A stretch of DNA of 64,000 bases from Escherichia phage VEcB, in sequence record NC_052663.1. One strand, given 5' to 3'. Under the pieces are notes generated by a model. The model saw only the letters and a program-made list of their open reading frames with translations. It ran no database searches and was not told the origin of the DNA. Positions 12,187-48,512 of the stretch are shown in pieces. Positions within the stretch are counted from its first letter, which is position 1; the number at the start of each line of letters is the position of its first letter. The position numbers and the translations under genes are program-made.

Positions 12187-12999
12187 TTACTTAGTCAAAT
12201 GATCTTCTATCATTTTTATGAAAGCAGGATTGCTAAAAGCATCTGCTGCCTTTTCTCTGTAAACAAAGACTCCTCTATCTTCGTAAAGAAGAGTTTCTTC
12301 GTAATTAATTCCTGGGTTAACAACAATCATTTTTGTACCCATATTAAGTGCAGGGAATAATTCCCAATTAAAATTGATAACTTGGTTTGAACATCCTACT
12401 ACAACAACCAAATCTTGCATGGTCAAAGTATCAAACAAGTGAGCCATATCTGCATACAAAGGTGCAGCCTCACCAAAAAATACAACATTAGGCTTCACCC
12501 AGTTATAATCATCTATGTTTATACTATTGTAACCAATGTCTACCAGTGTTTTGTAATCTCCAGGATGCATACGGTAAACTACTTCATGGAGATACCCGTG
12601 CACGTGAATAACAGAATCCCTGTCCACACCTGCTCGCTCTAGTAGATCATCGACGTTTGTTGTCAAGTTTACTACTTGGTTAGGATATTCCTTAAACCAC
12701 TTTGCTATTTGAATATGTGCAGCATTAGGTTGTACATCTTTAAGCTCAACACGTCTTTTGTTATAAAATTCGTGTGTTTTGGCATACAAATCCATACCGT
12801 TCTCGTCTACACCACCGACCACTGGAAGATCTGGTGATGTTCTCACACGATAACCTGCTTGGAAAGCTCCAATATCGCAGATCTCTTCTAAATCCCATTC
12901 TTCCCATAGGGCACGACCACTATCTGTGTCTGTTCGGAATGTTCGAATCCCACTATCTGCACTTAAACCAGCTCCACTAACAAAAATTACTCTTCGCAT
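12187..12999 (-). CDS. Sir2-family NAD-dependent protein (deacylase/ADP-ribosyltransferase/NADase fold)
   Basis: GAGLSADSGIRTFR, PNAAH, TTNVDDLLERAG, HVHG and VFFGE motifs; no zinc-ribbon cysteines. Confidence 0.7.
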   Translation of the reverse strand: MRRVIFVSGAGLSADSGIRTFRTDTDSGRALWEEWDLEEICDIGAFQAGYRVRTSPDLPVVGGVDENGMDLYAKTHEFYNKRRVELKDVQPNAAHIQIAKWFKEYPNQVVNLTTNVDDLLERAGVDRDSVIHVHGYLHEVVYRMHPGDYKTLVDIGYNSINIDDYNWVKPNVVFFGEAAPLYADMAHLFDTLTMQDLVVVVGCSNQVINFNWELFPALNMGTKMIVVNPGINYEETLLYEDRGVFVYREKAADAFSNPAFIKMIEDHLTK

Positions 13000-14327: not shown

Positions 14328-15317
14328 CTATTCCTCCATACATTTAAGAATATGTGCAATGACAGGTATAGTCCAACCGTTACCTAACATCTTATATGCT
14401 TGTGTGTTACTACTCACTTTAAAGTAGTCATCTGGCACACCTTGCAAACGGCAACACTCTTTAACGGTTAACTTTCTATAATGTACGCCTTCACTCAATT
14501 TTTCAAAAGCATCTAAATATCTTCCAGGTGGAATGTAAGCTAATAGTACGTCTTTCGGCACAGTCGTGAGGCAACGAGTTTTTTCACTGTCCTGAACTTC
14601 CAAACAATGTACCAAACGATCAGTTTTAGATGTACTACGTTTGCCATTTTCATTAATTCTACGCCCATATATTGCTGCTGGATAAAAAACCAGTTGTCTG
14701 CGACTCTTTTCAAAATACTGTTCTATATTACCACCTTTGGCATAATTTGCATCTATGCAATAAGCCTTATCTCTGTCTACAATACTATCATCTTCAATGA
14801 TATCTTGCAACACTTCATTGGTAATATCCCAAGGTTTTATTTCCCAGTTGCACCAGTATAAACGTTGTCTATTCTGTGCCGTGAAATCTGCGGAATTAAT
14901 GAATACGGGATCAACACCTAAGTAACTTGTGATCACGTTTTCCCACTCCACTTTCATCTTAACGTTTTCAAGCATGAACTTAACATTAGGGTTAAACTTT
15001 TTAATATGTTCAAGAATCTCAACATATTCGAAGAATAGCTTAGATCGCGGATCTTGAAAGTTCAAACCCTTACCAGAAGAAGAGAAGCCTTGACACGGAC
15101 TACCACCTAACAAAAGATCAATTTCTCCCCACGGGATATCCCATTCTCTCCATTTTGTAACATCACCTAACTGAATAATATCTGGAAAATTTGCTTGGCT
15201 TTCAGCTACGGCAAATTTGTCTAATTCTGAAGCGTAATATGTATCTACTTCAATACCTGCACTTTTTAGCGCAAGCATTCCTCCTGACATACCATCAAAA
15301 AGACTTAAAACTTTCAT
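14328..15317 (-). CDS. DNA (cytosine-5)-methyltransferase
   Basis: FDGMSGG (motif I), GGSPCQGFS (PCQ motif IV), MLENVK (ENV motif VI). Confidence 0.85.
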   Translation of the reverse strand: MKVLSLFDGMSGGMLALKSAGIEVDTYYASELDKFAVAESQANFPDIIQLGDVTKWREWDIPWGEIDLLLGGSPCQGFSSSGKGLNFQDPRSKLFFEYVEILEHIKKFNPNVKFMLENVKMKVEWENVITSYLGVDPVFINSADFTAQNRQRLYWCNWEIKPWDITNEVLQDIIEDDSIVDRDKAYCIDANYAKGGNIEQYFEKSRRQLVFYPAAIYGRRINENGKRSTSKTDRLVHCLEVQDSEKTRCLTTVPKDVLLAYIPPGRYLDAFEKLSEGVHYRKLTVKECCRLQGVPDDYFKVSSNTQAYKMLGNGWTIPVIAHILKCMEE

Positions 15318-20281: not shown

Positions 20282-20532
20282 TATTCATCCCAATCGTTGT
20301 TGCGAGCACTTTCAAGAACCTTGACAACTTCTGCGTACTCTACAGCTAAACCAGCACACACTTCAGCTTGTTTTGCAATTGCTTGCTTAAAGAACATAGC
20401 GATTGCAACACTCTGTGTCGTGTGAATGTTATCTGCTTTAGTTGATACGTGAAGATCAAAATCTTCTTCATCAAAGGTGAGTTCCATAGTAACAATAAAT
20501 TTCTCGGTCATAAAAATGCTCCTCTTAAACAA
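20281..20532 (-). CDS. hypothetical protein
   Basis: 83-aa ORF. Confidence 0.4.
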   Translation of the reverse strand: MFKRSIFMTEKFIVTMELTFDEEDFDLHVSTKADNIHTTQSVAIAMFFKQAIAKQAEVCAGLAVEYAEVVKVLESARNNDWDE

Positions 20533-21034
20533 AATAGAAAGGTTGAGTTAAACCCAGCCTGTTTTTTGGGTCGTAGACGTACCAAGCATATGCTGTCTTA
20601 TCAGTACCACCTGCAACAAAAGATGGTCGTTCAGAAAGAACAATCAAATTTGTTGGTGGGTTCTGTTTATGGAATTCCCTTCGTTTAATAGACTCTAGGA
20701 ACCCAAGACGCAACAAGTATATGCAAACGTCTGCTTCTTTTAAGCTCTTTTGCAAGAACTCAAGTGCAAGTCTGAATGGTGGATTTGTGATTATAATATC
20801 CGGCTTAGTATGCCATTCGTGGTTAAAATAATCCTTCCCTTCTTCTAACTCACAATATTCTGATCCTTCTGGAAAATGTTGATAAATTGCAGCAGCAGCG
20901 CCTTTACACGGTTCTGCAAAAATAAAACCTTCTTCTTTAAGGTTATTAAAATCTATTACACTAAATAATGCATTTATACATTTTTGTGGAGTAGGATAGT
21001 AATCAGTTGGTGGACGATCATACTTATTTGCCAC
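20525..21034 (-). CDS. putative DNA N6-adenine methyltransferase (small phage Dam-like family)
   Basis: DYYPTP N-terminal motif and IITNPPF catalytic motif IV in a 169-aa protein. Confidence 0.5.
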   Translation of the reverse strand: MANKYDRPPTDYYPTPQKCINALFSVIDFNNLKEEGFIFAEPCKGAAAAIYQHFPEGSEYCELEEGKDYFNHEWHTKPDIIITNPPFRLALEFLQKSLKEADVCIYLLRLGFLESIKRREFHKQNPPTNLIVLSERPSFVAGGTDKTAYAWYVYDPKNRLGLTQPFYFV

Positions 21035-21494: not shown

Positions 21495-22298
21495 TTAATT
21501 ATCAGAGGACACTTTATCAAGTTTTTCAGAGACTGTCAATACTTTTTCTTGTGATTCTTTCATTTCTGCTAAAATACTTTCAGCTTCATCGCTATCAGGA
21601 TCACCAGTCAACAGCATACTAATTAGTTGCTCCTTGCTGAAGTTCAGAATATCTTCCGCTGTTAACTCCAGTTGTTCTTCGATCTCTTCGATAAAAGTTT
21701 CACCGCCGGAAAAAGCATCTCGCAGTTTTGCAACTTCCATCGCTTCTTCTGGAGTTGCCCCTGCATCTAAAGCTGCTAAAGCAAAATCTGCCCCACTACC
21801 AACAGCATAATAATCTTCAGTTAAAGGATATGCTCGCGTTGGATTATTACCCTCGTGCATATAAATTTTACCGTCTGGATGAACAACCAATGCCACAAAC
21901 TCTTCATCTTCTTTATCGGGATCTGACTGGATCACCAAACCTGGGATTGTCTCTTGTGCTGCTAGTTTATCAGTCTTATCTCCAGATAAGAAACCAATTT
22001 GATCATCACCTACTTCTGTCGGGTTTTTAAGGAAAATCAACTTTCTGAAATCACCAGCTTTAAGCATTTGCAATGCTTTCCATAGTGCTGTTGTCGTTTT
22101 TCCTGTTCCTGCTGGGGCATTAACAATGGTTAAATCATTCCAAACCATGCTTCTTACAATAGCTTCTTGATTCCCAACAGGGGTAAATTCATCAAGACGG
22201 TAATCATCATTTCCTACTGCTTTAGCCGCATAACGACTGGCACGTTTGTCATCATTGGCTGCTGATTGACGACGAGCCTTTGCGGTTTTATTTCCCAT
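21495..22298 (-). CDS. phoH: PhoH-like ATPase
   Basis: Walker A AGTGKTT in PhoH-like context. Confidence 0.6.
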   Translation of the reverse strand: MGNKTAKARRQSAANDDKRASRYAAKAVGNDDYRLDEFTPVGNQEAIVRSMVWNDLTIVNAPAGTGKTTTALWKALQMLKAGDFRKLIFLKNPTEVGDDQIGFLSGDKTDKLAAQETIPGLVIQSDPDKEDEEFVALVVHPDGKIYMHEGNNPTRAYPLTEDYYAVGSGADFALAALDAGATPEEAMEVAKLRDAFSGGETFIEEIEEQLELTAEDILNFSKEQLISMLLTGDPDSDEAESILAEMKESQEKVLTVSEKLDKVSSDN

Positions 22299-22314
22299 GT
22301 TTGCACTCCTTATA

Positions 22315-22334
22315 AAAGGGGCTTTCGCCCCTTT
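22315..22334 (-). terminator. terminator hairpin GGGGC-GAAA-GCCCC + U-run
   Basis: same motif as 12158 and 35757; just downstream of lysozyme stop. Confidence 0.5.
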
Positions 22335-22336
22335 GT

Positions 22337-22837
22337 TTAGTTATAAGCGTCTAATGTTCCAGTTTTAAGTACCTGAATTACACGCTCTGCGCGATTAGGC
22401 GTTTGGCGATACCATTTACTTTTACGTAAATTTATAGAGGCTTGAGTATAATATGAATTACTCACTAAAGTCAAGCTATTTTTGAAAGATTCTGCACCTT
22501 TCAATCCCATTTGAAATACCATATTAATAATAGCCATTTTACGATTAGGACTTACTTTATCGTAAATAGGAGATAATATGGCACTTGAATGGATTTGTTG
22601 TATCGCTTTCTTTACGTCACTCTCAAAGATTCTTCTAGCTTCCGCTTCAGTAATAACCCCATTGGTTTTTCTACCTACTAAGTTATCAAGAATACGTATA
22701 GCTTCTGCTTTATCTTTGAGTTTTGTCAGAAGGTGTCCAATACCAACTGTCCAATACCCTTCGGTATCAGGATATACAGTTAGCTTTAGTCCTTCATCAA
22801 AACGTAACATATCAAACACATCAACTACTTTAGCCAT
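22337..22837 (-). CDS. endolysin, T4 lysozyme (gpe) family
   Basis: near-colinear similarity to T4 lysozyme: DEGLKLTVYPDTEGYWTVGIGHLLTK, NMVFQMG, WYRQTPNRAERVI. Confidence 0.9.
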   Translation of the reverse strand: MAKVVDVFDMLRFDEGLKLTVYPDTEGYWTVGIGHLLTKLKDKAEAIRILDNLVGRKTNGVITEAEARRIFESDVKKAIQQIHSSAILSPIYDKVSPNRKMAIINMVFQMGLKGAESFKNSLTLVSNSYYTQASINLRKSKWYRQTPNRAERVIQVLKTGTLDAYN

Positions 22838-22997
22838 GTTTTCCTTATATTAGTCGCCCTCCCCATGATCTAGCTCTTGAAACAGTAGGTGTTCAGGAGA
22901 CATTTCACGTTTAGGCTTCGTCTTTTTAGTTTGGGACTTAAGCTCTGTTGCCAAAGCACGAGAAAAGATCTTACGTTTCTGTTTACCTTTCATATTG

Positions 22998-23264
22998 TTA
23001 CTCCGCAATCTGAGCCATGAATTCACGTAGTTCAGAAAAACCTCCTACGTGGGTTAGCTGTTCACCATCTTCCACAAAAATCTGAGGAAATGTACGTGGT
23101 AGAACACCTGTTTTCTCTAAGACCAGAGTCTGAATCTGATCTAAAGAATAGTCTTCATCTAAGGTAAGGTATTTAAAATCCTGTTCACGCTGTTCTAGTA
23201 GAATCTTAGCGTTAGTGCAGAAAGGACAATTTGGTTTACCGTAGATAATAAAATTCATTTTCAC
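22998..23264 (-). CDS. glutaredoxin-like protein
   Basis: CPFC active site in an 88-aa protein. Confidence 0.7.
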   Translation of the reverse strand: MKMNFIIYGKPNCPFCTNAKILLEQREQDFKYLTLDEDYSLDQIQTLVLEKTGVLPRTFPQIFVEDGEQLTHVGGFSELREFMAQIAE

Positions 23265-24091
23265 TCCTTGTTTAAAAGTATAGTTAAAGTTCTTACAATA
23301 CCGCTATCAACACTTCGCGGATTTAAAGTAGGATCTGTTTTTAAATAAGATGTTGCTGGTCTGACTGCTTTGGAATTATAGGTTGAAGCAGATACAGGAT
23401 TAACTGTAACAGATAAATCTATAACAAGAAATATCTTTCGTGCAAAATCATACCAAGAAATATAATCTGCACCTGCATAGTGTACAATTTTACTATTTAC
23501 ACCATCTTTTACAAGTTTAAAAATTGTTTCTGCAAGATCAGGTGCATAAGTAGGACATGATAAATGATCACATACTACATTAAATTCTTTTTGACCACCG
23601 TTGTAGCGTTCCAACATAGTTTTCAAAAAGTTATGTCCAAATTCACTATAAACAGAAGCTGTTCTGATAATAAGTGCTGTAGGACAAACTGTTTGTACTA
23701 AAGTTTCACCTAATTGTTTACTGTAACCGTAGGTGTTCAAGGGGTTTGTTTTACTATCTTCTGTGCCAGCAACATGCCCATCAAAAACATAGTCTGTTGA
23801 AATATGTACAAACTGTATCAGTAAATCATTACATGCTTTGGCAATGTTTGTTGCACCGTATGCATTAACATTTATACAGGTGTTAACATCTTCTTCAGCT
23901 TTATCTACTGCCGTGTAAGCCGCACAATTCACAACAACATCAGGCACGTGCTGTACAAGACTATTCATAACATCTTTAAAGTTGGTAATGTCTATATCAC
24001 TTGCTTCAATCAAAATAACATCTTCTGGTGCAACTTTTGCCAAAGATTGTCCTAATTGACCTTTTGAACCAAAGATTAAAAATTTTGTCAA
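23261..24091 (-). CDS. rmlD: dTDP-4-dehydrorhamnose reductase
   Basis: N-terminal GSKGQLG Rossmann motif, size and operon position after rmlC. Confidence 0.75.
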   Translation of the reverse strand: MTKFLIFGSKGQLGQSLAKVAPEDVILIEASDIDITNFKDVMNSLVQHVPDVVVNCAAYTAVDKAEEDVNTCINVNAYGATNIAKACNDLLIQFVHISTDYVFDGHVAGTEDSKTNPLNTYGYSKQLGETLVQTVCPTALIIRTASVYSEFGHNFLKTMLERYNGGQKEFNVVCDHLSCPTYAPDLAETIFKLVKDGVNSKIVHYAGADYISWYDFARKIFLVIDLSVTVNPVSASTYNSKAVRPATSYLKTDPTLNPRSVDSGIVRTLTILLNKE

Positions 24092-24642
24092 AATATGATC
24101 TCCTTTAGTGTTTTGGCTTCCTTATCTTTTTGTGACAAGATAGGTTTAAAATTAATATCATTAAAGATTAAATCAAAACCCCAATCAATATTGATATCTG
24201 GATCATTCCACGCAAGACTACACTCTGAAGTCGGATCGTAATATTCTGTACATTTATATTCAAAATCAGCAATGTCACTAATCACAACAAAGCCATGAGC
24301 GAAACCAGGAGGAATCCAAAATTGTGTTTTATTCTTTTCAGATAAGAGAACACCTACCCATTCTCCAAATGTTGGACTACCAACCCTAATATCTACAGCA
24401 ACATCATAAACTTCACCACGAACACAACGTACTAACTTCCCTTGTGGGTTTTTCTTTTGAAAATGAAGCCCACGTAGAACTCCTCGAATAGAACGTGAAT
24501 GGTTATCTTGGACAAAGTTTTGTTTACCTATGTATTGATCATATAAAGCCTGATTAAAACTTTCTAAGAAAAAACCACGTTCATCTCCGTAAACGTCAGG
24601 TTGAATGATCAACAAATCTTCGATTTTTGTTGCTTGAATCAT
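24088..24642 (-). CDS. rmlC: dTDP-4-dehydrorhamnose 3,5-epimerase
   Basis: RGLHFQ, KLVRC, DVAVDIR, GFAHGF cupin motifs. Confidence 0.9.
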   Translation of the reverse strand: MIQATKIEDLLIIQPDVYGDERGFFLESFNQALYDQYIGKQNFVQDNHSRSIRGVLRGLHFQKKNPQGKLVRCVRGEVYDVAVDIRVGSPTFGEWVGVLLSEKNKTQFWIPPGFAHGFVVISDIADFEYKCTEYYDPTSECSLAWNDPDINIDWGFDLIFNDINFKPILSQKDKEAKTLKEIIF

Positions 24643-24654
24643 TTAATTCCCCCT

Positions 24655-25524
24655 TTATTTTAATTTAAGTAAATACTTACCGTAGTCTGTTTTACTTAAA
24701 ACCTCTCCAGAACTTTTTACAGAGTCTAAAGTAATCCATTCATTTTTAAAAGCAATCTCTTCCAGGCATGCAACCTTCATACCTTGTTGCTTTTCTATTG
24801 CATGAACAAATTGAGATGCTTCCATAAGACTTTCATGTGTTCCTGTATCCAGCCAAGTGAAACCTCTTCCTAGTTTACAGACACGTAAAGTCTTTTCTTT
24901 CCAGTACATCTCATTTATATCTGTGATCTCTAATTCCCCTCTAGCAGAAGGTTTAACGCTTTTAGCTTTCTGTATAACAGAATTATCGTAAAAGTACAAG
25001 CCTGTAATTGCATAATTGCTTTTTGGTGCTTTTGGTTTTTCTTCAATACTTACCACTGTACCTTCAGAATCAAACTCAACAACACCAAATCTTTCAGGAT
25101 CATTTACGTGATACCCAAAAATATTAGCTCCACCATTCTTTTCAATATGTTCTTTAGCAGAATCTAAAATGCTACCAAAACTCTGACCAAAGAACAAATT
25201 ATCACCTAGAACAAGTGCTACAGAATCTTCACCAATAAAGCTCTCACCAATAATAAACGCTTCTGCTAAACCTTTTGGGTTGTCCTGTATTGCATACTGT
25301 AGGGAAATACCAAAAGAAGAACCATCACCTAGAAGATTTACAAAATTAATTTGATCTTCTGGTGTCGTAATTATTAGTATTTCCCTAATTCCAGAAAGCA
25401 TTAGGACAGAGAGTGGATAATAAATCATAGGTTTATCGTAAATTGGTAATAGTTGTTTACTAACCCCTTTAGTAACTGGGTAAAGTCTTGTTCCACTACC
25501 ACCTGCTAAGATAATACCTTTCAT
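24655..25524 (-). CDS. rmlA: glucose-1-phosphate thymidylyltransferase
   Basis: [16 protein letters not shown] nucleotidyltransferase motif, 289 aa. Confidence 0.9.
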
Positions 25525-25532
25525 ACTCCTCC

Positions 25533-26522
25533 TTAAACTTTATTTTCCCACCACTCTTTGTTATCTACATACCAATCAATGGTTGAATAAAGTTTTTCTT
25601 CAAATGTGCCTTTAGCTTTCCACCCTAATTCCTTTTCAATCTTATAAGGATTCACTTCATATCTTAAATCATGCCCAGGCCTATCTGTAACCATCTCAAT
25701 GAGGCTACAAGCATCTGTTTCAGATGGATACACCGCATCCATATAATCACAAATCATATAGATTACATCAATATTAGTTCTAGGGTTTCTGCTCCCAATA
25801 TTATATGTTTCTCCAGATTTGCCTTTAGTTACTACTAGGTGTAATGCTTCTGCGTGATCGTCAACGTATAACCAATCTCTTACTTGAAGACCATTGCCAT
25901 AAACAGGGATTGGTTTATGCATCAAAATATTTGTTATCGTTTTAGGTATTAGTTTTTCTGGATGATGATACGCTCCAAAATTATTTGAACAATTTGTTAT
26001 AACTGTCGGAATACCATAAGTACGATGCCACGCTCTTACCAAATGATCGCTTGCTGCCTTAGATGCAGCATATGGACTACTTGGCTTATAAGGATTCTGT
26101 TCTGTAGACGGATAATCCCCTTCTTCCAGATCACCATACACTTCATCTGTTGAAATATGATGAAACATTTTAAGATTTGATTTATCTCCCATTAAACGAA
26201 CAGCTTCTAGAAGATTAAATGTTCCAACAATATTTGAATTTATAAAAACACTCGGTGATGCTATTGAATTATCTACGTGACTTTCTGCTGCAAGATGCAT
26301 TATATAATCTGGATTAACATCTGCCACAATCTTAGCAGTTAACTGAGCATTTGTCAAGTCAACACGACAAAACTTTACATTAGGTGTTTCTGATAAATTT
26401 CTAGGGTCTGAAGCGTAACCCCATTTATCTATAACGTAAATATCATTCTTAGTGTTTTTAGCCAGGAAACGAACTACCGCACTTCCAATAAAGCCTAAAC
26501 CACCTGTTACTAAGTATTTCAT
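25533..26522 (-). CDS. rmlB: dTDP-glucose 4,6-dehydratase
   Basis: [12 protein letters not shown]-binding motif, short-chain dehydrogenase layout, 329 aa. Confidence 0.85.
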
Positions 26523-26719
26523 TTAGTCTCCTTCCAATTATTCCCTTCAGTAAAAATAATACCTTCATAAAACAACCATCTGGAACCTTTTTTAACAGGA
26601 ACAGGAAGCTCTTCTTCAGTAAAGTTATAAACCTCTCTAGCATCTTCTAAAAGTGATGCAAATGTTTTTGGACTTACTGTTACGCGAGGAGCATTGATCA
26701 GTTGATCTAGCATCATTCT
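26519..26719 (-). CDS. hypothetical protein
   Basis: start moved to internal ATG with AAGGAGG SD (ORF track end 26809) to remove 80-nt overlap. Confidence 0.35.
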   Translation of the reverse strand, partial: RMMLDQLINAPRVTVSPKTFASLLEDAREVYNFTEEELPVPVKKGSRWLFYEGIIFTEGNNWKETK

Positions 26720-26729
26720 ACTATCCTCC

Positions 26730-27056
26730 TTACCAAACGTGTTGAGAAATAATAGTTTCCGTTTCAATGTTATATTTTTCAAGAATTTGTGCATAGGCTT
26801 CTTTTGCATTCTTATTTAGTTGCTCAAGATCTACAGCTACACTTCCTTCGCCACCTTCTAAATAAATGCCATATATGCAATAAGATTCATCAGCGTCATA
26901 GAAAGGAGAGATACGACTTAAATCAAGACCTTCTTGTAAGAACCAGTTAAAATCTCCATCAAATTCTTCTTCAATTCTAGGATCTTCTCCTACAGCCTCT
27001 TCCCATTTATTAAAAGGCGCACCCTGTAACATACGCCATTCAATATTAGTTCCCAT
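26730..27056 (-). CDS. hypothetical acidic protein
   Basis: 108-aa ORF. Confidence 0.45.
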   Translation of the reverse strand: MGTNIEWRMLQGAPFNKWEEAVGEDPRIEEEFDGDFNWFLQEGLDLSRISPFYDADESYCIYGIYLEGGEGSVAVDLEQLNKNAKEAYAQILEKYNIETETIISQHVW

Positions 27057-27194
27057 TATCTTCCTCCTCTTCTTTTTCTTCCGTATGAACGAAACCTAAA
27101 CCGTTACAATTCCAACAAGGAATAAATTGTTCCATACTAACAATAAAATTCCCAGTACCCCCGCAGATAGGACAAATACTTACATCATCCATTA

Positions 27195-27401
27195 TTAAAG
27201 CTCCTCAATCTTTTCTAACATCTGTTTTAACTCATTCTCTGTTAACAGAATTTCTGTGATACCATCATAAGTTTCTACCATCAGAGTAAAACATTTTTCC
27301 CCATCTGAACACACAAAAGCGCCACCTTCATCTTCTGTTAAGTCAGAATTAATATCTACATCAACAAAATCAATCATCTTTTTCTCCTTTGATAATTTCA
27401 A
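27195..27401 (-). CDS. hypothetical protein
   Basis: 68-aa ORF. Confidence 0.4.
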   Translation of the reverse strand: MKLSKEKKMIDFVDVDINSDLTEDEGGAFVCSDGEKCFTLMVETYDGITEILLTENELKQMLEKIEEL

Positions 27402-27588
27402 ACTTGGCTACACCATTAACTATAATATGACCGCAAGACAGAACTCCTAGCCAATGATCACCATTCTTTTTTAAACGTTTACCGTAAACATCACAGAAAC
27501 CATTCTGCAATTCGGAAGCCTCGTAAGAGGCTCCCTTTTCGAAAACGTCTTTGAAGTCAGAAATTAATCCAACACAAAGTAGTTTCAT
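27370..27588 (-). CDS. hypothetical protein
   Basis: 72-aa ORF. Confidence 0.4.
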   Translation of the reverse strand: MKLLCVGLISDFKDVFEKGASYEASELQNGFCDVYGKRLKKNGDHWLGVLSCGHIIVNGVAKFEIIKGEKDD

Positions 27589-28673
27589 TAAAAATCTAAC
27601 TCCTCGTCGTCACTTACATCTTTATTTGCTGAATTCAGTTTGTAAGCTGTAATTTGGATCTCCTGTGCTGCTGCTTGAATTTGATCTGGATTTAACCAAA
27701 CATCCATCCAAGGCAGTGGACTTTTCTTCGGTGCACGGAATTTGTGTTTCATTTTCAGTCTGCGATAGATAGGCGCGGCATTGAAGTAAACCCAAAGTTT
27801 GAACAACTCTGCGTTACCACCAACGATAACCCTTCCTTCACTAAACAGATAGTCACACCAATCTTCCTCTTGTCCAACTACCGTATCAAGAATTTCTGTC
27901 AGAACGTCGATATTGTCTTCGTATACTTTTCTCCAAACAGGATCTTTCAGCAGTGCATCAATAATAGCATAATCCATTTTAACGTGCAATAGTTCATCCA
28001 ACATAATTTTTTGAATGAGTTTAGCTGCACCTACAAACAGTTGCTGCTCTGCTAAGGCAAATGTTGCAGCAAAAGATGATATGAATTGAATGCCTTCCAG
28101 ACCGATAAGTGCAATCATTCCTTTCAGAATCAGTAGACGAAGGTTATCATCCTTCTCAATCAGACCTAGAGCATACTTATGCCCTGCCTCTGCCAGATCA
28201 CTCATTATCTCTTCAACTATACCCATCCTCTGGAAGATTCTTTCGTTCTCCATAATCTGATCGATAACTTCATTTGGATTAGGGATACACTGACGAATAA
28301 TTTCAGAATATGTCAAAGCGTGTAAAACTTCCATTTCTGATTGCTTCATCATCATTGCACATGCTTCGTTGTTGCTTAAAAATGGTGCAAACAAAGTGAT
28401 GATTGATTTAGCAAGTGAATCATTTTCCCATTGGAAAGATAGGTTTTTGATCATAACATCATAGTTGCTTTTAGAACAAGCTACGAAATCTTTTCGTGTC
28501 TGATCTAAGTTTACTTCGTTTTCATCCCAATCTTGCTGTTTTTGTAGTTTGTACAGACGATGCATTTCTGGGTATGTTACGTTAATAGAATCAAAAATAC
28601 CTAACTGTTCTCCCAAAAATACAGGGTAGAAACCTTCTTTGTAAGTGTCGTTGTATAAATTAATTGCTGCCAT
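27588..28673 (-). CDS. nrdB: ribonucleotide reductase small subunit
   Basis: 361-aa ferritin-like protein next to nrdA, acidic C-terminal tail. Confidence 0.8.
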   Translation of the reverse strand: MAAINLYNDTYKEGFYPVFLGEQLGIFDSINVTYPEMHRLYKLQKQQDWDENEVNLDQTRKDFVACSKSNYDVMIKNLSFQWENDSLAKSIITLFAPFLSNNEACAMMMKQSEMEVLHALTYSEIIRQCIPNPNEVIDQIMENERIFQRMGIVEEIMSDLAEAGHKYALGLIEKDDNLRLLILKGMIALIGLEGIQFISSFAATFALAEQQLFVGAAKLIQKIMLDELLHVKMDYAIIDALLKDPVWRKVYEDNIDVLTEILDTVVGQEEDWCDYLFSEGRVIVGGNAELFKLWVYFNAAPIYRRLKMKHKFRAPKKSPLPWMDVWLNPDQIQAAAQEIQITAYKLNSANKDVSDDEELDF

Positions 28674-28692
28674 TTAAATCCTCCACAATAAA

Positions 28693-28712
28693 AAAGGGGC
28701 CGAAGCCCATTT
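28693..28712 (-). terminator. terminator hairpin (GGGC-TTCG-GCCC + U-run on minus strand)
   Basis: hairpin followed by TTTTTT in minus sense, between nrdB and upstream gene. Confidence 0.5.
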
Positions 28713-28716
28713 ATAT

Positions 28717-29373
28717 TTAGCCTCGAAATACTGTTTTTGTTTCCGCCAGGTGACAATAGAAATCCGCTTTGTTTACAAGAGTGTTGTACACCTCTGGATA
28801 AAAATGTTCTTCCTCTTTGTAACGATCCGCTGTTTCCCTGATTGACTTAGCTTTATCCTTTAGCCAAGCAAAGTGTGCCTCTTCCTCTGTAGCGAAGTAG
28901 CCTAAATGCTTACCTTTACTTCCAGAGGCTTTTGCATAAATCTTACCATCTTTCCTAACATGTGCTCCTAGTAAGTATTTTCTTTCATACCTTTTAGCAT
29001 AACTTAAGAGTGTATTTATGTAAGGAGGAACAAACCTACAATATTCAGGACAATAAACAGTATTTCCTTCAAGAACAAGATCTTTATCTAAAACAAAGCC
29101 TTCCACGCTATGTTCCTGATACCAGTTATCAAAGTTTGAAAAGGTGAACCAAGCATCACACACGGTAACATCTTTATAACCTGGTCTAATGTTTTCCATA
29201 TTATATGCACGATTAAACATACCCTTCCAAGCTGCATAAGAAGGGTCTATGAATGTATTAACCCTTTTCCCATTGATAACACCACCTTCCCACAATCTAC
29301 GTTCAACATCCACAATCAAGGGGATTTCTCCCCTCTCTGTGAGAACGGTAACTTTACGTTTACCCTTCTTCAT
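28717..29373 (-). CDS. homing-endonuclease-like protein with C-terminal AP2 domain
   Basis: LGYFATEEEAHFAW AP2-type motif; paralog of 40297-40926; sits between nrdB and nrdA. Confidence 0.4.
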   Translation of the reverse strand: MKKGKRKVTVLTERGEIPLIVDVERRLWEGGVINGKRVNTFIDPSYAAWKGMFNRAYNMENIRPGYKDVTVCDAWFTFSNFDNWYQEHSVEGFVLDKDLVLEGNTVYCPEYCRFVPPYINTLLSYAKRYERKYLLGAHVRKDGKIYAKASGSKGKHLGYFATEEEAHFAWLKDKAKSIRETADRYKEEEHFYPEVYNTLVNKADFYCHLAETKTVFRG

Positions 29374-29384
29374 CTGTTCTCCTA

Positions 29385-31649
29385 CTACATTTTACAGGCA
29401 CTACACCCTTCGTCTTCAGAATCTTCTTGTGCAAAAGAGTCTGCTGATTTTGTTCTACTATTTAGATAGTACAAAGATTTACCACCAAGTTTTGCAAACT
29501 GAAGGATATATTGCATTTCTGATTTAATGGATAAACGACCACCTTCCATTTTAGAATAGTCAATCCACTTGTCACATGATGCGCCTTGATCTAAGAATTT
29601 AGTCAATAGTCCATATGCTTCAGCCATATCTTTATCTGGCGTATCCCAAGCCGATTGGTAAATATCTTTTAGTTTATCGTAATCTGGCACAATAAACAAG
29701 ACATTACCTTTTTGGCTTTGTTTATAAACTATAGTATCACGTACAGGATACACAGAGTTAGTCGTATTACTTACAAGACTACTGGACTCATTCGGAGCAA
29801 TAGCTGCTAATACACTATTTCTGATACCACCTTGTGCAATTATATCTTGTCGTAAACCTTCCCAATCCATTTTAAGTTTAAAATTACCAATATCATCTAC
29901 AGCTTTAGCGTAGGTATCAATAGGCAACCATCCTTCAGGCCATTTGGTTTTATGCATCCATTCTGCATTACCTTTCTCTTTTGCCAAACGAAGAGAAGCT
30001 CTTGCTAACCAATAATAATGTCTTTCTGCTAATTCGTGAATTAGTTTTTTGCCGTAAGGATCTGAATAAGTAACAAAATTACTTGCCAGATAATGTGCAA
30101 GGTTTGTAATACCTACACCGATAGACCTACGTGCTTTAGCAGTGATTTCGTTATGTTTAAACGGATACTGCATTGTTTCAATCACATTATCAATAGTTAG
30201 AACGGTATAATATGCAACATCTTCATATTCTTCTGGTGTAACACGACCAGCTACAATAGAAGACAGGAAGCATAATGCCAATTCTTGGTCTTCTGTATTC
30301 TCACCTGTGAAAAGATCAGTCATACTGTGAAATGCTTTCGTAGGTAAGAAAATTTCTTGGCACAAGTTTGACTGATAAATAACATCCTTAAACGGAGTAT
30401 GCTTATTAGCATTATCCGCAAAGAACATATAAATACGTCCTGTCTCTGCTCTTTGTGTAATAATTTCTGCCAGAAGATCTCGTGCTTTTACAAACTTCTT
30501 CTTAATTCGTTTGCGACTAACTTTTTCATATACTTCTTCAAACTCTTCCTCGCTTTTATAAAGCGCCTCATAGAGTTCTGGTGCTTCGTCATAACTGACT
30601 AGCATCCAATCTTTACCTTTTGCTGCACGGCGCAGGAAAGCATTGTTTACTACAATAGAGTAATCAAGTTTATCTACTCGTTTTTCACTAACAGTAGTTG
30701 GGTTTTTCAAACGTACCAGATCTTCAAAATCAGGTTCTAATATTGTAAACGTTACTGTTGCACTTCCACCACGACTTGCTTGTTTTGATGCTCCAACACT
30801 TGTTTCCATCCATTTCAGATATGGTAAAAGACCACCGTGAACGATACGGTTGTTCTTAACACCTTGTCCTGTAGCACGGGTTTGGAGGTTAACACCAATA
30901 CCTGCATTATTCAATGTATATTCATGAGCAAGATAGTTAGCAATTGCTAAAGATTCTGCTGTATCATCTGCTCTAAACAGACAACAAGAAGCACTACCTT
31001 TAATCTTAGTACGCAACGTTGTTAAATAAGGTGATGGTAAATTAATCTTAAGATCACTTACGTAGGTATATAGACGTTTAATGTCTTCTACTCTGCGATC
31101 TTTTGGTTGGATTTCCATTACCTTCATTGCTACACCAATGAATAAAAATTGTGGTGATTCAAAAACCACATCATTGATCGCATCTTTCACAAGATACTTA
31201 TCAACCATCTGGCGCAGTACGGAATAACCATAAGTTAGGTTTTTATCATGATTGATAATTTTACCAATCTCAATAATTTCTTCTTCTGTATAATCCATTT
31301 TCCCCCAATAGCCTTTACTTACAGACATATTGTAGAAATCCAGGAGGGAGGGGATATTATGATATCCCCCATGAGCCTGTTTATAGATCATACCAAGAAG
31401 TAACCGACCTGCCATATCACTATATGCCTGATCTTTCTTATCAATACATGCTGCTATCATAGCTTTATGTAAATCACGAGTAGGCACACCGTCGTAACAA
31501 CGTTTAACAGCTTCGAGTTCGATTTCAGACCAATTTAATTTACCAGCAGCAAACTCTGACCATTTACGAAGTTTTTCTGGATTAAATTCTTCTTTCTTGC
31601 CGTTTGTTTTTGTTACATAACGGATAGATTTGCTTAGATACTGAGTCAC
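29385..31649 (-). CDS. nrdA: ribonucleotide reductase large subunit (class I)
   Basis: 754 aa, C-terminal CSAC redox pair, adjacent nrdB. Confidence 0.9.
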   Translation of the reverse strand: MTQYLSKSIRYVTKTNGKKEEFNPEKLRKWSEFAAGKLNWSEIELEAVKRCYDGVPTRDLHKAMIAACIDKKDQAYSDMAGRLLLGMIYKQAHGGYHNIPSLLDFYNMSVSKGYWGKMDYTEEEIIEIGKIINHDKNLTYGYSVLRQMVDKYLVKDAINDVVFESPQFLFIGVAMKVMEIQPKDRRVEDIKRLYTYVSDLKINLPSPYLTTLRTKIKGSASCCLFRADDTAESLAIANYLAHEYTLNNAGIGVNLQTRATGQGVKNNRIVHGGLLPYLKWMETSVGASKQASRGGSATVTFTILEPDFEDLVRLKNPTTVSEKRVDKLDYSIVVNNAFLRRAAKGKDWMLVSYDEAPELYEALYKSEEEFEEVYEKVSRKRIKKKFVKARDLLAEIITQRAETGRIYMFFADNANKHTPFKDVIYQSNLCQEIFLPTKAFHSMTDLFTGENTEDQELALCFLSSIVAGRVTPEEYEDVAYYTVLTIDNVIETMQYPFKHNEITAKARRSIGVGITNLAHYLASNFVTYSDPYGKKLIHELAERHYYWLARASLRLAKEKGNAEWMHKTKWPEGWLPIDTYAKAVDDIGNFKLKMDWEGLRQDIIAQGGIRNSVLAAIAPNESSSLVSNTTNSVYPVRDTIVYKQSQKGNVLFIVPDYDKLKDIYQSAWDTPDKDMAEAYGLLTKFLDQGASCDKWIDYSKMEGGRLSIKSEMQYILQFAKLGGKSLYYLNSRTKSADSFAQEDSEDEGCSACKM

Positions 31650-32429: not shown

Positions 32430-33401
32430 TCACCATTTTGTATGGTTCGTCAAAAGTTGACGATGTTGAATCCAACCACAGAAGTTTCCACTCCACAAAC
32501 GATGTTTACGATCCATATGTGTAATACCTTCTTCCCAAGAGGAAGGGAACGGAGGAATATTAATACCACCTTTCTGTTGTTTTAATCCTGACAAATCCAT
32601 TTCTTTCATTGGCGTTGCCTGGTGTTCAAACGGAGATGCATGTACCTTTTGTCCAGACAGCAAACGAGAATAGATATCCAATGCTTTATCTTTAGTATCA
32701 TTCAATTTACGATAACTTACCTGAGCGCAACAAGAAGCTGAAATAGCTTTTGCTTCCTCTTCTGTCAACATTTTCTCGTTGGAGAAGGTTTCACCCAAGA
32801 AATAACGGATCATACCAGTTTCTGGATCTCGATCACGATTAACGTAAGGTGTATGCCATTCCCCTGGGAAAAGAAGATATGGTTCAGAAGATTCATACAG
32901 TTTTTTAATTTCTTTAGCAAGAGCCTCAATAGTAGGATCTGCATCAGCATCTACGCGCAACCACAAGAAGTTTTCTAGCTCTGTAGCGGTTACTACAGTC
33001 TTCATACGCTGGAATGGTTCTAGTAGGCGGTTTGCAACCTGTTTATGATAACCAGCAAGGGCAAACTCTTCTGCAAAACGTGCAGCACTTAGTGCAGCCA
33101 AGTCCCACCATTCTTTTGCAGTGTAACCTGCATCAATCAGGGCATCGTGATCTGTGCCTTTATCTTGCATACCTGGTTGGTTAGCACCAAAACGATAAGG
33201 ACGTGCTGGAGATTGCCGTACCATTTCAATTAGAGTTTTAACAGGGATAGCTCGACTTGATGCGGCATTACGAGAAAACAAACGATGCGTCATCAATTCA
33301 GAGTGAATGATTCGAGGATATTCAAGTTCAAAGGTAACAATATCCTTACCTTCGGATGTTTGAGAGTGTGCAATAATTTTTGCTGAAATAGAATTTGTCA
33401 T
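32430..33401 (-). CDS. thyX: flavin-dependent thymidylate synthase
   Basis: ELMTHRLFSRNAASSR matches the ThyX RHR-x7-S-x-R signature. Confidence 0.7.
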   Translation of the reverse strand: MTNSISAKIIAHSQTSEGKDIVTFELEYPRIIHSELMTHRLFSRNAASSRAIPVKTLIEMVRQSPARPYRFGANQPGMQDKGTDHDALIDAGYTAKEWWDLAALSAARFAEEFALAGYHKQVANRLLEPFQRMKTVVTATELENFLWLRVDADADPTIEALAKEIKKLYESSEPYLLFPGEWHTPYVNRDRDPETGMIRYFLGETFSNEKMLTEEEAKAISASCCAQVSYRKLNDTKDKALDIYSRLLSGQKVHASPFEHQATPMKEMDLSGLKQQKGGINIPPFPSSWEEGITHMDRKHRLWSGNFCGWIQHRQLLTNHTKW

Positions 33402-33410
33402 TATTTCTCC

Positions 33411-34001
33411 TTAAGGTAGTAAAATACTTTCAATTTCTTCCCACTGATTATCTAAACCAGTGATAATTACATTAGGAAGTTTCTTTAACTCTTCCAAGTA
33501 TGGATCTTCGTAAATAGTGTTGAAATATATTTTCAACGTTTCATCTGGAAATAGGACAAGATTTTCAGCCCTATCGTCAATAGTTACGTCGCAAGGTAAT
33601 AAGTATTTTTCTTTTGTTGCGAAAAAGCCATTACCAGATGTTCTGCTAAAGTCCACTTTATCTAAAGATCGTGTTACGTGTCTATATTTAGAACTAAGGT
33701 GTCCACCCTTAGTGTGGCTTGCTATAGATATATTAGCTCCATTTGCAATTATACGATGAACAACATCTGTACTATTAGGTACTACTCCCATAGTATCATA
33801 TAGATGTTGGTTATCCCAAAAAGAGTAAGGATCTACACCAAATTGCTTTTTAAAATCAGGAAAATATTTCGTAATATCATAATGCACAGTCTTTTGTGTC
33901 TTATCAAACTTGATATTAGATCTACTTACCGCATTTAACCAACTCAACCATTCTATATCGGCAGGAGCTATTACTAAATCCCAATCACATACTAGACGCA
34001 T
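33411..34001 (-). CDS. putative 5'(3')-deoxyribonucleotidase (HAD family)
   Basis: start moved to internal Met so CDWDLV (DxD motif) is N-terminal; IDDRAEN downstream; ORF track end 34115 overlapped tdk. Confidence 0.45.
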   Translation of the reverse strand: MRLVCDWDLVIAPADIEWLSWLNAVSRSNIKFDKTQKTVHYDITKYFPDFKKQFGVDPYSFWDNQHLYDTMGVVPNSTDVVHRIIANGANISIASHTKGGHLSSKYRHVTRSLDKVDFSRTSGNGFFATKEKYLLPCDVTIDDRAENLVLFPDETLKIYFNTIYEDPYLEELKKLPNVIITGLDNQWEEIESILLP

Positions 34002-34548
34002 TATTTCTCCTGTTATAACATTTTCTACACATTGTTTCGTAAATATCTTCTCCTCCAATAACAATCTGTTCTTTAGAGTCGATAAGTCTAGCATTGAAAA
34101 TAGCTTTTCTTCCACATTTACAAATGCTTTTCAATTCTGTAATTGAATCTGCTATGGCTAATAACCGTTCAGAACCTTCAAACAATTCTGTAGCAAAATC
34201 TGTTTTAAGCCCATAACAGAATACAGGAATATCGTAATTATCTACCACATCTCCAAGAATGTCAACCATATCTTTAGTTAGGAATTGTGATTCGTCCACA
34301 AACACTGCATCTACTGGATTTTCTTTAAGTTGTGTATAAATTTCCAGCATATCTTCTTTTGTTTTTACTGGTTTTGCTTCCTCTTTAATACCTATCCTAG
34401 AAGCAATAGCACAACCAGATCTGGTATCTAAAGCTGAAGTTAAAAGAAGAACTTTCATATTTCTTTCTTTATAGTTCCAAGCTGTTTGTAGCAGATGTGT
34501 GCTTTTACCACTGTTCATCGGACTATATCGGAAATAAAGTTTAGCCAT
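33985..34548 (-). CDS. tdk: thymidine kinase
   Basis: P-loop SPMNSGKST, C-terminal CKCG...CRKC zinc motif. Confidence 0.85.
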   Translation of the reverse strand: MAKLYFRYSPMNSGKSTHLLQTAWNYKERNMKVLLLTSALDTRSGCAIASRIGIKEEAKPVKTKEDMLEIYTQLKENPVDAVFVDESQFLTKDMVDILGDVVDNYDIPVFCYGLKTDFATELFEGSERLLAIADSITELKSICKCGRKAIFNARLIDSKEQIVIGGEDIYETMCRKCYNRRNNASSM

Positions 34549-47547: not shown

Positions 47548-48441
47548 ATGAAAGTTAGTATTCTACATGGTGTTGACTGTTATGTTACTGATGTAGACGT
47601 TAAAGTCTTTACATTCTCTGGTGGAGAACAACATGTTCAACTAGACACGAATCTATCAGGTTTCAATCATGCTACAGACAGAATCTTACTCTCTTTAGAA
47701 GTAAGATCTGCTAAAGACTTGATGACTTTGGTTATGACTAAGAATGCATTGGACAATATGCTATATCATAAACCATATTGTGTTGATTTGCTCATGTTGT
47801 ATGTGCCATATGCACGACAAGACAGAGTGTGTGAACCTGGGGAAGCATTCGGAGTTAAAGCATTTGCTTCTATAATTAATTCATTAAATTTCTCACGTGT
47901 TATCGTTGCTGATCCACATAGTGATGTTACTCCAGCGGTGTTTGACAGACTCTGTGTAATACCTCAAGAAGAGATTGCTTACGAAACTTTAAAGTGGAAG
48001 TTACGTATGGAGAATTTTGCTCTTGTTAGTCCTGATGGTGGTGCTCTTAAGAAAATATTTAAATTATCTAAGAAAATGTCTTTAGATGTGTTCTGTGCAG
48101 AGAAGGTTAGAGATACTGCAACAGGTGCTATTGTTCGTACAGACATTTCTGTACAGGATTTCAATAAGCGTAACCTGATGATCGTAGATGATATCTGTGA
48201 TGGTGGTAGAACTTTTATCGAATTGGCTAAAGTGCTACGTGCTCGTAACGCAGGTAAGATTGAGTTATATGTTACACACGGTATCTTTTCTAAAGGTCTT
48301 AAAGAGTTAAGTGAGCACTTTGACTGCATTCATTCTCTTAATGTGTGGGAAGATAACATCCAAGAAGATTCCGGTGTTCTTGTTAAGAATCAGTCAGATT
48401 TGCAACAACAAATTGTATCTCCATACGTGTGGAATTTTTAA
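47548..48441 (+). CDS. ribose-phosphate pyrophosphokinase family protein (PRPP-synthetase-like; candidate Adps of an NAD+ reconstitution pathway)
   Basis: YARQDR, VSPDGG, MIVDDICDGGRT motifs. Confidence 0.8.
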   Translation: MKVSILHGVDCYVTDVDVKVFTFSGGEQHVQLDTNLSGFNHATDRILLSLEVRSAKDLMTLVMTKNALDNMLYHKPYCVDLLMLYVPYARQDRVCEPGEAFGVKAFASIINSLNFSRVIVADPHSDVTPAVFDRLCVIPQEEIAYETLKWKLRMENFALVSPDGGALKKIFKLSKKMSLDVFCAEKVRDTATGAIVRTDISVQDFNKRNLMIVDDICDGGRTFIELAKVLRARNAGKIELYVTHGIFSKGLKELSEHFDCIHSLNVWEDNIQEDSGVLVKNQSDLQQQIVSPYVWNF

Positions 48442-48451
48442 ATAATAAATG

Positions 48452-48480
48452 TTGACAATAGGGAGTATGCTTAGTAAGAT
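48452..48480 (+). promoter_or_regulatory. sigma70-like promoter TTGACA-N17-TAAGAT
   Basis: consensus -35 and -10 directly upstream of the Nampt-like gene. Confidence 0.55.
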
Positions 48481-48512
48481 ACTCCCACACTAACAAACAA
48501 GGAGACATAACT

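Follow-up and report, generated by a model that had tools for sequence, protein, structure and literature searches.

Chloroviruses and mimiviruses supply both the activated rhamnose and the glycosyltransferases (GTs) for glycosylation of their capsids, and mycobacteriophages with glycosylated virions have several genes for soluble GTs, located apart from the core structural genes. Here we examine a proposed functional analogue in Escherichia phage VEcB, a Justusliebigvirus (phi92-like) of the subfamily Stephanstirmvirinae. A 64,000-nucleotide stretch of its genome (NC_052663.1; hereafter the window) contains a cluster of four genes, rmlB, rmlA, rmlC and rmlD, for synthesis of dTDP-L-rhamnose, and we suggest that this sugar may be the donor for a cassette of GT genes located elsewhere in the genome.

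The known systems resemble the VEcB locus in part. The donor in chloroviruses and mimiviruses is UDP-L-rhamnose, which is made by a eukaryote-type two-enzyme route, whereas RmlABCD would produce dTDP-L-rhamnose. The bacterial rml operons (rfb/rml of Salmonella and E. coli, and E. coli rffGH for enterobacterial common antigen, ECA) encode the same four enzyme families as the phage cluster. To our knowledge, mycobacteriophages with glycosylated virions do not carry a nucleotide-sugar pathway; these systems also differ from ours in their hosts, as the VEcB host is Gram-negative, and in that glycosylation by VEcB is putative. Virion glycosylation in mycobacteriophages Che8, Corndog and Myrna is attributed to Freeman et al. 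2023 (cited through PMC11256854 and PMC12363180), and Che8 gp110 is reported to be essential for capsid glycosylation.

The phage rml cluster has been seen before. Those of phi92 (gp064-067), phAPEC8 (gp166-169) and other Stephanstirmvirinae are the same system with no material difference, and GenBank already labels the genes as dTDP-rhamnose enzymes in more than 100 genomes. Their peculiarity was remarked on by Olsen 2020, Maffei 2021 and Vitt 2024: Olsen 2020 speculated on rhamnosylation of hydroxymethylated nucleotides (PMC7552041), Vitt 2024 repeated the DNA-glycosylation idea (PMC10844046), and Maffei 2021 described phi92-like phages as 'exceptionally susceptible' to restriction-modification (RM) despite a 'putative dTDP glycosylation machinery' (PMC8594841). 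Our literature searches found no experimental study of phage rml function. A first-pass annotation, made from the letters of the window, had called the pathway unusual for a phage. This is correct among phages generally, but within Stephanstirmvirinae rml is a conserved and annotated hallmark; RmlC was present in 168 phage records, about 130 of which belong to this subfamily. Thus the feature and its oddity are already annotated and published. What is new here is that rml can be linked with a defined GT cassette in another part of the genome, and that this cassette exists without rml in one relative and in unrelated prophages.

The rml cluster specifies a complete dTDP-L-rhamnose pathway

Open reading frame (ORF) analysis showed that positions 23261-26522 are filled exactly by four minus-strand genes transcribed in the order rmlB-rmlA-rmlC-rmlD. 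The spacing between the genes ranges from -4 to +12 nt, and a Shine-Dalgarno sequence precedes each of them. All four products exceeded the curated equivalog cut-offs of NCBIfam: RmlB scored 440.7 bits against TIGR01181 (cut-off 365.1), RmlA scored 471 bits against TIGR01207 (360.65), RmlC scored 259.7 bits against TIGR01221 (155.75), which was its sole family match, and RmlD scored 253.6 bits against TIGR01214 (224.05). Pfam domains were consistent with each assignment. RmlC aligned with positions 2-168 of the 168-position PF00908 model (E 3.5e-72), and RmlD matched PF04321 (E 2.3e-73).

The motifs expected of these enzymes are also intact. RmlB has GGLGFIG, TDEVYG and YAASK, corresponding to the GxxGxxG, TDE and YxxxK motifs of extended short-chain dehydrogenases/reductases, and RmlD has GSKGQLG, STDYVF and YGYSK (GxxGxxG, STDYVF, YxxxK). 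GGSGTRL at residue 8 of RmlA corresponds to the GGxGTRL nucleotide-binding motif, and RmlC carries an RGLH motif. The top solved-structure matches of the phage proteins were Salmonella RmlA and RmlB and E. coli RffG; in the PDB, RmlB was best matched by Salmonella RmlB (1g1a, E 5e-116) and RmlA by Salmonella RmlA (1iim, E 1e-124), in both cases with end-to-end alignment.

These results bear out the four genes that the first-pass annotation had placed here and indicate, at the level of sequence, that rmlBACD is a complete and intact four-enzyme pathway that is very probably functional. RmlA would convert glucose-1-phosphate and dTTP to dTDP-glucose, and RmlB would convert this product to dTDP-4-keto-6-deoxyglucose. 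Epimerisation of the latter by RmlC followed by reduction by RmlD would then yield dTDP-L-rhamnose.

Four glycosyltransferase genes lie outside the window

The first-pass annotation had recognised no GT near rml. This was correct for the window, as neither tblastn with the phage's own GTs nor the PHROG-style RefSeq annotation of the matching region of Escherichia phage muut (NC_052657.1) revealed a GT within its 64 kb. It was not correct for the genome. A search of the rest of the genome, which had been put forward as a check, was carried out on the near-identical muut and identified four consecutive GT genes (GT1 to GT4) at 107413-110589. This cluster is about 70 kb from rml and directly upstream of the primase/helicase and DNA polymerase genes.

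GT1 to GT4 match PHROG GT families with E values of 1e-79 to 1e-149. In Pfam they have weak matches, of which only that of GT4 to PF13524 reaches the cut-off. GT2 has a GT-A fold, and GT3 and GT4 are paralogues with a GT-B fold; the modelled GT-A and GT-B folds had pLDDT values of 89.5 and 95.9, respectively. No transmembrane segment was found in any of the four proteins (maximum of at most 1.21 in a 19-residue Kyte-Doolittle window). Among the structural neighbours of GT2 and GT3, enzymes acting on lipid-linked or wall glycans predominate (GlfT2, TarP/TarS, Listeria RmlT, PglA, WlaC, PimA/B, WaaG, WbnH and TarM). Sequence searches of the PDB gave no match for GT1 and only spurious or non-significant matches for GT2, GT3 and GT4, a Foldseek search of BFVD with GT2 returned only unnamed or generic viral GTs, and hhalign comparison of GT1 with the GT2 and GT3 alignments detected no relationship.

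The rml cluster and the GT cassette tend to occur together

RmlC, GT2 and GT3 were sought across 50,697 phage records. At 95% identity or above they were found in 53, 54 and 52 records, respectively, and at 60-80% identity in 77, 71 and 79, so that the three agree closely within each band. All rml-bearing genomes whose GT region was read, that is, the phi92-like genomes and Klebsiella phage KP2025, carry cassette GTs, and phAPEC8, phiWec186, PsgM04F and Citrobacter Tr1 have matches to rml and to at least one cassette GT. The reverse does not hold for Klebsiella phage KP13-16, also a member of Stephanstirmvirinae, which encodes GT1, GT2 and a single GT-B enzyme upstream of primase. Of its 137 kb, 135 were examined and contained no rml gene, and its glutaredoxin gene directly abuts nrdB.

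The GT cassette thus appears to be older and more widespread than rml. Because KP13-16 keeps the cassette without rml, rml looks like an accessory donor-supply module, and the simplest reading is that it guarantees a supply of the donor sugar where the host might be without it. The rml product is rather likely to be the donor for the phage's own GTs. According to this model, dTDP-L-rhamnose would feed the soluble cluster of GT1, GT2, GT3 and GT4, and rml would free the phage from the variable rhamnose genes of its host.

A separate feature of this region is a tellurite-resistance-like set just upstream of the GT genes in muut (96066-106062), consisting of a TerC/Alx membrane protein, TelA, a vWA-TerF-like protein and TerD, together with hydrolase and phosphatase genes. 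The same set is present in KP13-16 and KP2025.

Possible acceptors of the rhamnose

Local tblastn searches indicated that GT1-GT2-GT3 is a mobile three-gene cassette, and the GT3 family has 175 detectable members. In a Pseudomonas alliivorans prophage the cassette comes right after the gene for the major capsid protein (PF20036, E 5e-107), and a Serratia prophage has it between its lysis and terminase genes. Metagenomic phages contain GT3 homologues before terminase/portal/capsid genes, with similarly sized neighbours that are likened to GT1/GT2 by size only; in another metagenomic phage, a GT3 homologue with such neighbours is beside baseplate genes with a cytidylyltransferase. On further contigs the cassette precedes primase and polymerase, as in muut, and lone GT3 homologues in Burkholderia dolosa and Trinickia adjoin a gene encoding an inverse-autotransporter (intimin/invasin-type) adhesin. 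Taken together, these contexts weakly favour protein, and specifically virion, glycosylation.

We propose that the GT cluster would build a short rhamnose-containing glycan on virion proteins, resulting in a glycan coat comparable to the glycosylated capsids of mycobacteriophages and chloroviruses. As a whole, the formation of such a glycan by rml and the GT cluster is the best explanation of the data, with a probability of roughly 0.4. Transfer to the virion would be the least certain step, and a virion protein as the acceptor is put forward tentatively.

Several observations weigh against this proposal. The GT cluster of Stephanstirmvirinae is in the replication module and not in the structural module. 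Moreover, DNA-hypermodifying GT clusters can also adjoin structural as well as replication genes (Pyle et al., 10.1101/2023.12.21.572611), so adjacency to a capsid gene is not decisive. The phages that bear the cassette have unrelated capsid families and therefore no common protein acceptor is evident; a search for a Ser/Thr-rich, Che8-like tail on a capsid or decoration protein found nothing convincing. GT2 showed no significant similarity to Che8 gp108-110 (best blastp E 0.36, for gp108), and it weakly matches the TET-associated GT (TAGT) family PF20691 (E 1.6e-4, below cut-off) as well as the PHROG of the T4 glucosyl-hydroxymethylcytosine glucosyltransferase. T4 DNA glucosyltransferases are also among the structural matches of GT3, these folds being generic. 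Finally, in KP2025 rml is accompanied by no cassette enzymes other than GT1 and one GT-B.

GT2 is about 26% identical (E ~1e-7) to GTs annotated towards the right end of mycobacteriophage genomes such as MooMoo, TChen and Bobi, the same genome end at which gp108-110 of Che8 are encoded. These matches were considered as a link between GT2 and a proven capsid GT, but this link was dropped because of the absence of significant similarity to Che8 gp108-110.

The lone GT3 homologues belong to a conserved chromosomal trio composed of the inverse-autotransporter adhesin, a protein of 555-571 aa and a protein homologous to the phage GT-B enzyme (42-43% identity) in B. dolosa (JAIMDN010000082) and Trinickia symbiotica (PYUC01000018). 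This arrangement suggests a dedicated adhesin-glycosylation system.

The first-pass annotation had listed glycosylation of phage DNA among the possible roles of the pathway. According to this explanation, dTDP-rhamnose and the four GTs would decorate a hydroxylated base of the phage DNA, such as 5-hydroxymethylcytosine (5hmC) generated post-replicatively from the product of a C5-cytosine methyltransferase, and the modification would help the phage to resist some nucleases or defence systems, or would assist packaging. Several features fit. VEcB has a genuine C5-cytosine methyltransferase (Table 1), rml is in a nucleotide-metabolism block, and the GTs are directly upstream of primase/helicase and DNA polymerase. 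GT2 has the weak TAGT and T4-type matches described above, and its R...DDD...ED motif pattern resembles that of phage DNA GT-A enzymes. Like the known DNA hypermodification systems (T4 glucosyl-hydroxymethylcytosine; methyltransferase plus 5mYOX plus GT), muut has GT-A and GT-B enzymes in series near replication genes and a C5-methyltransferase in its genome. DNA as a universal acceptor would also explain the presence of the cassette in phages with unrelated capsids. Phage clusters of methyltransferase, 5mYOX and GT genes that attach mono- to trisaccharides to 5hmC within a sequence context are documented (10.1101/2023.12.21.572611).

Other findings argue against a DNA acceptor. Unlike the known systems, the enzymes that would provide the hydroxylated base were not found. 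When 20 ORFs of the window in the neighbourhoods of the C5-methyltransferase and thyX were scanned with Pfam and PHROG, neither a ThyA-type hydroxymethylase nor a Tet/JBP dioxygenase (5mYOX) was identified, and the PHROG-style annotation of all 257 coding sequences of muut contained no hydroxymethylase, Tet or JBP protein, although very remote homologues could escape such annotation. Such pathways are normally clustered, whereas the methyltransferase of muut (47734-48723) is about 60 kb from the GTs, and in the contexts examined outside Stephanstirmvirinae no methyltransferase, 5mYOX or ThyS was found closer to the cassette than about 8 kb. We know of no rhamnosylated DNA base that has been described, and our literature searches found no nucleoside analysis of phi92-like phages. 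A published list of DNA-GT-A homologues in NCBI viral genomes includes no Stephanstirmvirinae (10.1101/2023.12.21.572611). In addition, the published susceptibility of phi92-like phages to RM (PMC8594841) excludes a global modification like that of T4, although it does not touch a sparse, motif-specific one. From these data we conclude that a DNA acceptor is unlikely. Its bulk form, which is the least compatible with the published phenotypes, is disfavoured because of the RM susceptibility and because no hydroxymethylase or TET-like enzyme was found. Less likely still is a rhamnose-containing oligosaccharide on sparse, sequence-specific bases that would depend on a hydroxylase unlike ThyA/Tet/JBP and would escape the restriction enzymes tested so far.

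Phi92-like phages are reported to be very RM-sensitive despite several orphan DNA methyltransferases. In addition to the C5-cytosine enzyme, these include a small NPPF-motif protein and, outside the window (at 118 kb in muut), an N6/N4 enzyme (PF01555).

A third explanation is that the sugar is directed to the host envelope. The GTs and dTDP-rhamnose could alter intermediates of the lipopolysaccharide (LPS) core, O-antigen, ECA or capsule, or RmlC and RmlD could drain dTDP-4-keto-6-deoxyglucose from ECA synthesis; the resulting envelope remodelling would mask receptors, so that superinfection would be limited or fewer progeny would be lost on debris. This role is consistent with the predominance of enzymes of lipid-linked or wall glycans among the structural neighbours of GT2 and GT3. 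It also fits the positions of the prophage cassettes, as the interval between lysis and terminase genes, occupied in one of them, is a frequent site of lysogenic-conversion genes. Moreover, recognition of surface glycans and of the LPS core is reported for these phages (PMC8594841, PMC11990801). However, the phage is strictly virulent with a short cycle, such that a change of the surface would come late, and all four GTs are devoid of transmembrane segments. The membrane GT, flippase and bactoprenol-linked parts of the Gtr-type seroconversion modules of prophages were not found here; no Gtr-type membrane component, flippase (Wzx) or polymerase (Wzy) is annotated in muut. It is also hard to explain by exclusion alone why the pathway and the GTs are kept in more than 130 lytic genomes. 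We therefore consider remodelling of the envelope to be improbable, and glycosylation of virion proteins remains our preferred explanation.

The rml cluster is under purifying selection and is probably an old acquisition

The 3.26-kb rml cluster is 99.9% identical to those of Escherichia phages vB_EcoM_ESCO9 and muut, and 95-99.9% identical in 54 records in all, phi92 among them. Outside rml, the VEcB stretch differs from muut by small indels. Comparison of the four genes with those of phi92 identified 44 synonymous and 9 non-synonymous differences (pN/pS 0.055), which at the sequence level indicates strong purifying selection. In phAPEC8, of the genus Phapecoctavirus, the B-A-C-D order is kept and the cluster is inserted at the same site, with the small ORFs that follow nrdB on one side and glutaredoxin on the other; the Rml proteins are 54-72% identical to those of VEcB, with saturated synonymous sites.

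The nearest relatives of the phage RmlB are short proteins of 325-331 aa with 58-78% identity, and those members that are named or located on 140-157 kb contigs belong to large phages. The nearest bacterial proteins, from Enterobacterales, are about 354 aa (about 25 residues longer) and 55-56% identical. The order of the genes is B-D-A-C in E. coli and Salmonella as opposed to B-A-C-D in the phage, and the phage cluster, unlike the bacterial operons, has no adjacent O-antigen glycosyltransferase, flippase or polymerase. A recent transfer of rml from E. coli was rejected, as bacterial RmlB proteins are at most 56% identical, the short phage proteins form a separate clade and codon usage is phage-like; GC at third codon positions is about 0.2, the same as in neighbouring phage genes. 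The data fit a single old acquisition followed by vertical descent.

Five records labelled 'Campylobacter phage' also contain rml. In MG065639, MG065645, MG065656 and MG065689 (host given as C. jejuni) the cluster is 98.6% identical to that of E. coli phages, and MG065650 (B15) has a protein-level match with Phapecoctavirus-like identities. These five records are probably mislabelled or contaminant genomes.

Genomic setting and expression of rml

As the first-pass annotation had stated, rml lies between the glutaredoxin gene, which is directly downstream, and nrdB, nrdA, thyX and tk, which are upstream (Table 1). A gene for an NT5C-like nucleotidase is also among these dNTP-supply genes. A scan of 22300-28800 for sigma-70-like promoters and terminators detected no excess over shuffled sequence, and hence no dedicated regulation of rml can be claimed. 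The rml genes are predicted to be transcribed leftward in one long unit together with the nucleotide-metabolism genes for glutaredoxin, nrdAB, thyX and tk.

This setting would accommodate a role of rml that does not involve GTs, such as buffering or diversion of the dTTP pool, the latter being another possibility raised by the first-pass annotation, or use of the dTDP-sugar as a regulator or decoy. However, diversion requires RmlA alone, yet RmlB, RmlC and RmlD are conserved under purifying selection, and rml is accompanied by at least GT1 and a GT3-type cassette enzyme in every relative examined. We know of no precedent for such a role. Because the full pathway is conserved through RmlC and RmlD, dTTP diversion is unlikely, and we regard a purely metabolic function as highly improbable.

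Table 1. Features of VEcB discussed in the text, by window position, with two of the GTs encoded outside the window (from muut).
Feature	Position	Strand	Remarks
rmlB, dTDP-glucose 4,6-dehydratase	25533-26522	-	329 aa, short phage-type form
rmlA, glucose-1-phosphate thymidylyltransferase	24655-25524	-	289 aa
rmlC, dTDP-4-dehydrorhamnose 3,5-epimerase (cupin)	24088-24642	-	184 aa
rmlD, dTDP-4-dehydrorhamnose reductase	23261-24091	-	276 aa, TTG start after AAGGAG
nrdB	27588-28673		rml upstream flank
nrdA	29385-31649		rml upstream flank
ThyX	32430-33401		PF02511
Thymidine kinase	33985-34548		from annotation of the 98-99% identical phage muut
SIR2-family protein	12187-12999	-	PF02146, E 1e-22
C5-cytosine methyltransferase	14328-15317	-	PF00145, E 2e-43
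Small NPPF-motif protein	20525-21034	-	orphan methyltransferase
phoH-HslV-family fusion	21495-22298	-	267-aa chimeric ORF
Segment between nrdA and nrdB	28690-29421		replaced relative to muut
ORF in this segment	28717-29373	-	218 aa, no Pfam match
Ribose-phosphate pyrophosphokinase and nicotinamide phosphoribosyltransferase genes	47548-50246	+	names from muut annotation
GT1			187 aa, PHROG GT family, DID motif
GT4			314 aa, GT3 paralogue, same PHROG family

Other features of the window

Comparison with muut revealed two rearrangements near the rml cluster. In the first, 1,123 bp are missing from VEcB, such that the 5' part of phoH (PF02562, residues 43-113) is fused in frame to the 3' part of an HslV-family peptidase gene and the gene in between is lost. 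In the second, the segment between nrdA and nrdB has been replaced (about 730 bp in VEcB, about 380 bp in muut). The ORF in the VEcB segment ends in a C-terminal part (GKHLGYFATEEEAHFAW) that resembles the AP2-type DNA-binding motif found in free-standing homing endonucleases. The window also encodes a SIR2-family protein, and its ribose-phosphate pyrophosphokinase gene adjoins the nicotinamide phosphoribosyltransferase gene, a pair that resembles the phage NAD+ salvage or reconstitution systems proposed to counter NAD-depleting defences.

Significance

The link between rml and the GT cassette makes a long-noted curiosity addressable by a few knock-out and mass-spectrometry experiments. If DNA were the target, the pathway would represent new nucleic-acid chemistry and the first rhamnosylated nucleobase. 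If the virion carries a glycan coat, it would be the first known to us among phages of Gram-negative bacteria. Phi92-like phages and phapecoctaviruses infect a very broad range of hosts and are candidate agents for therapy and biocontrol, and such a coat would have effects on antibody recognition, clearance and stability.

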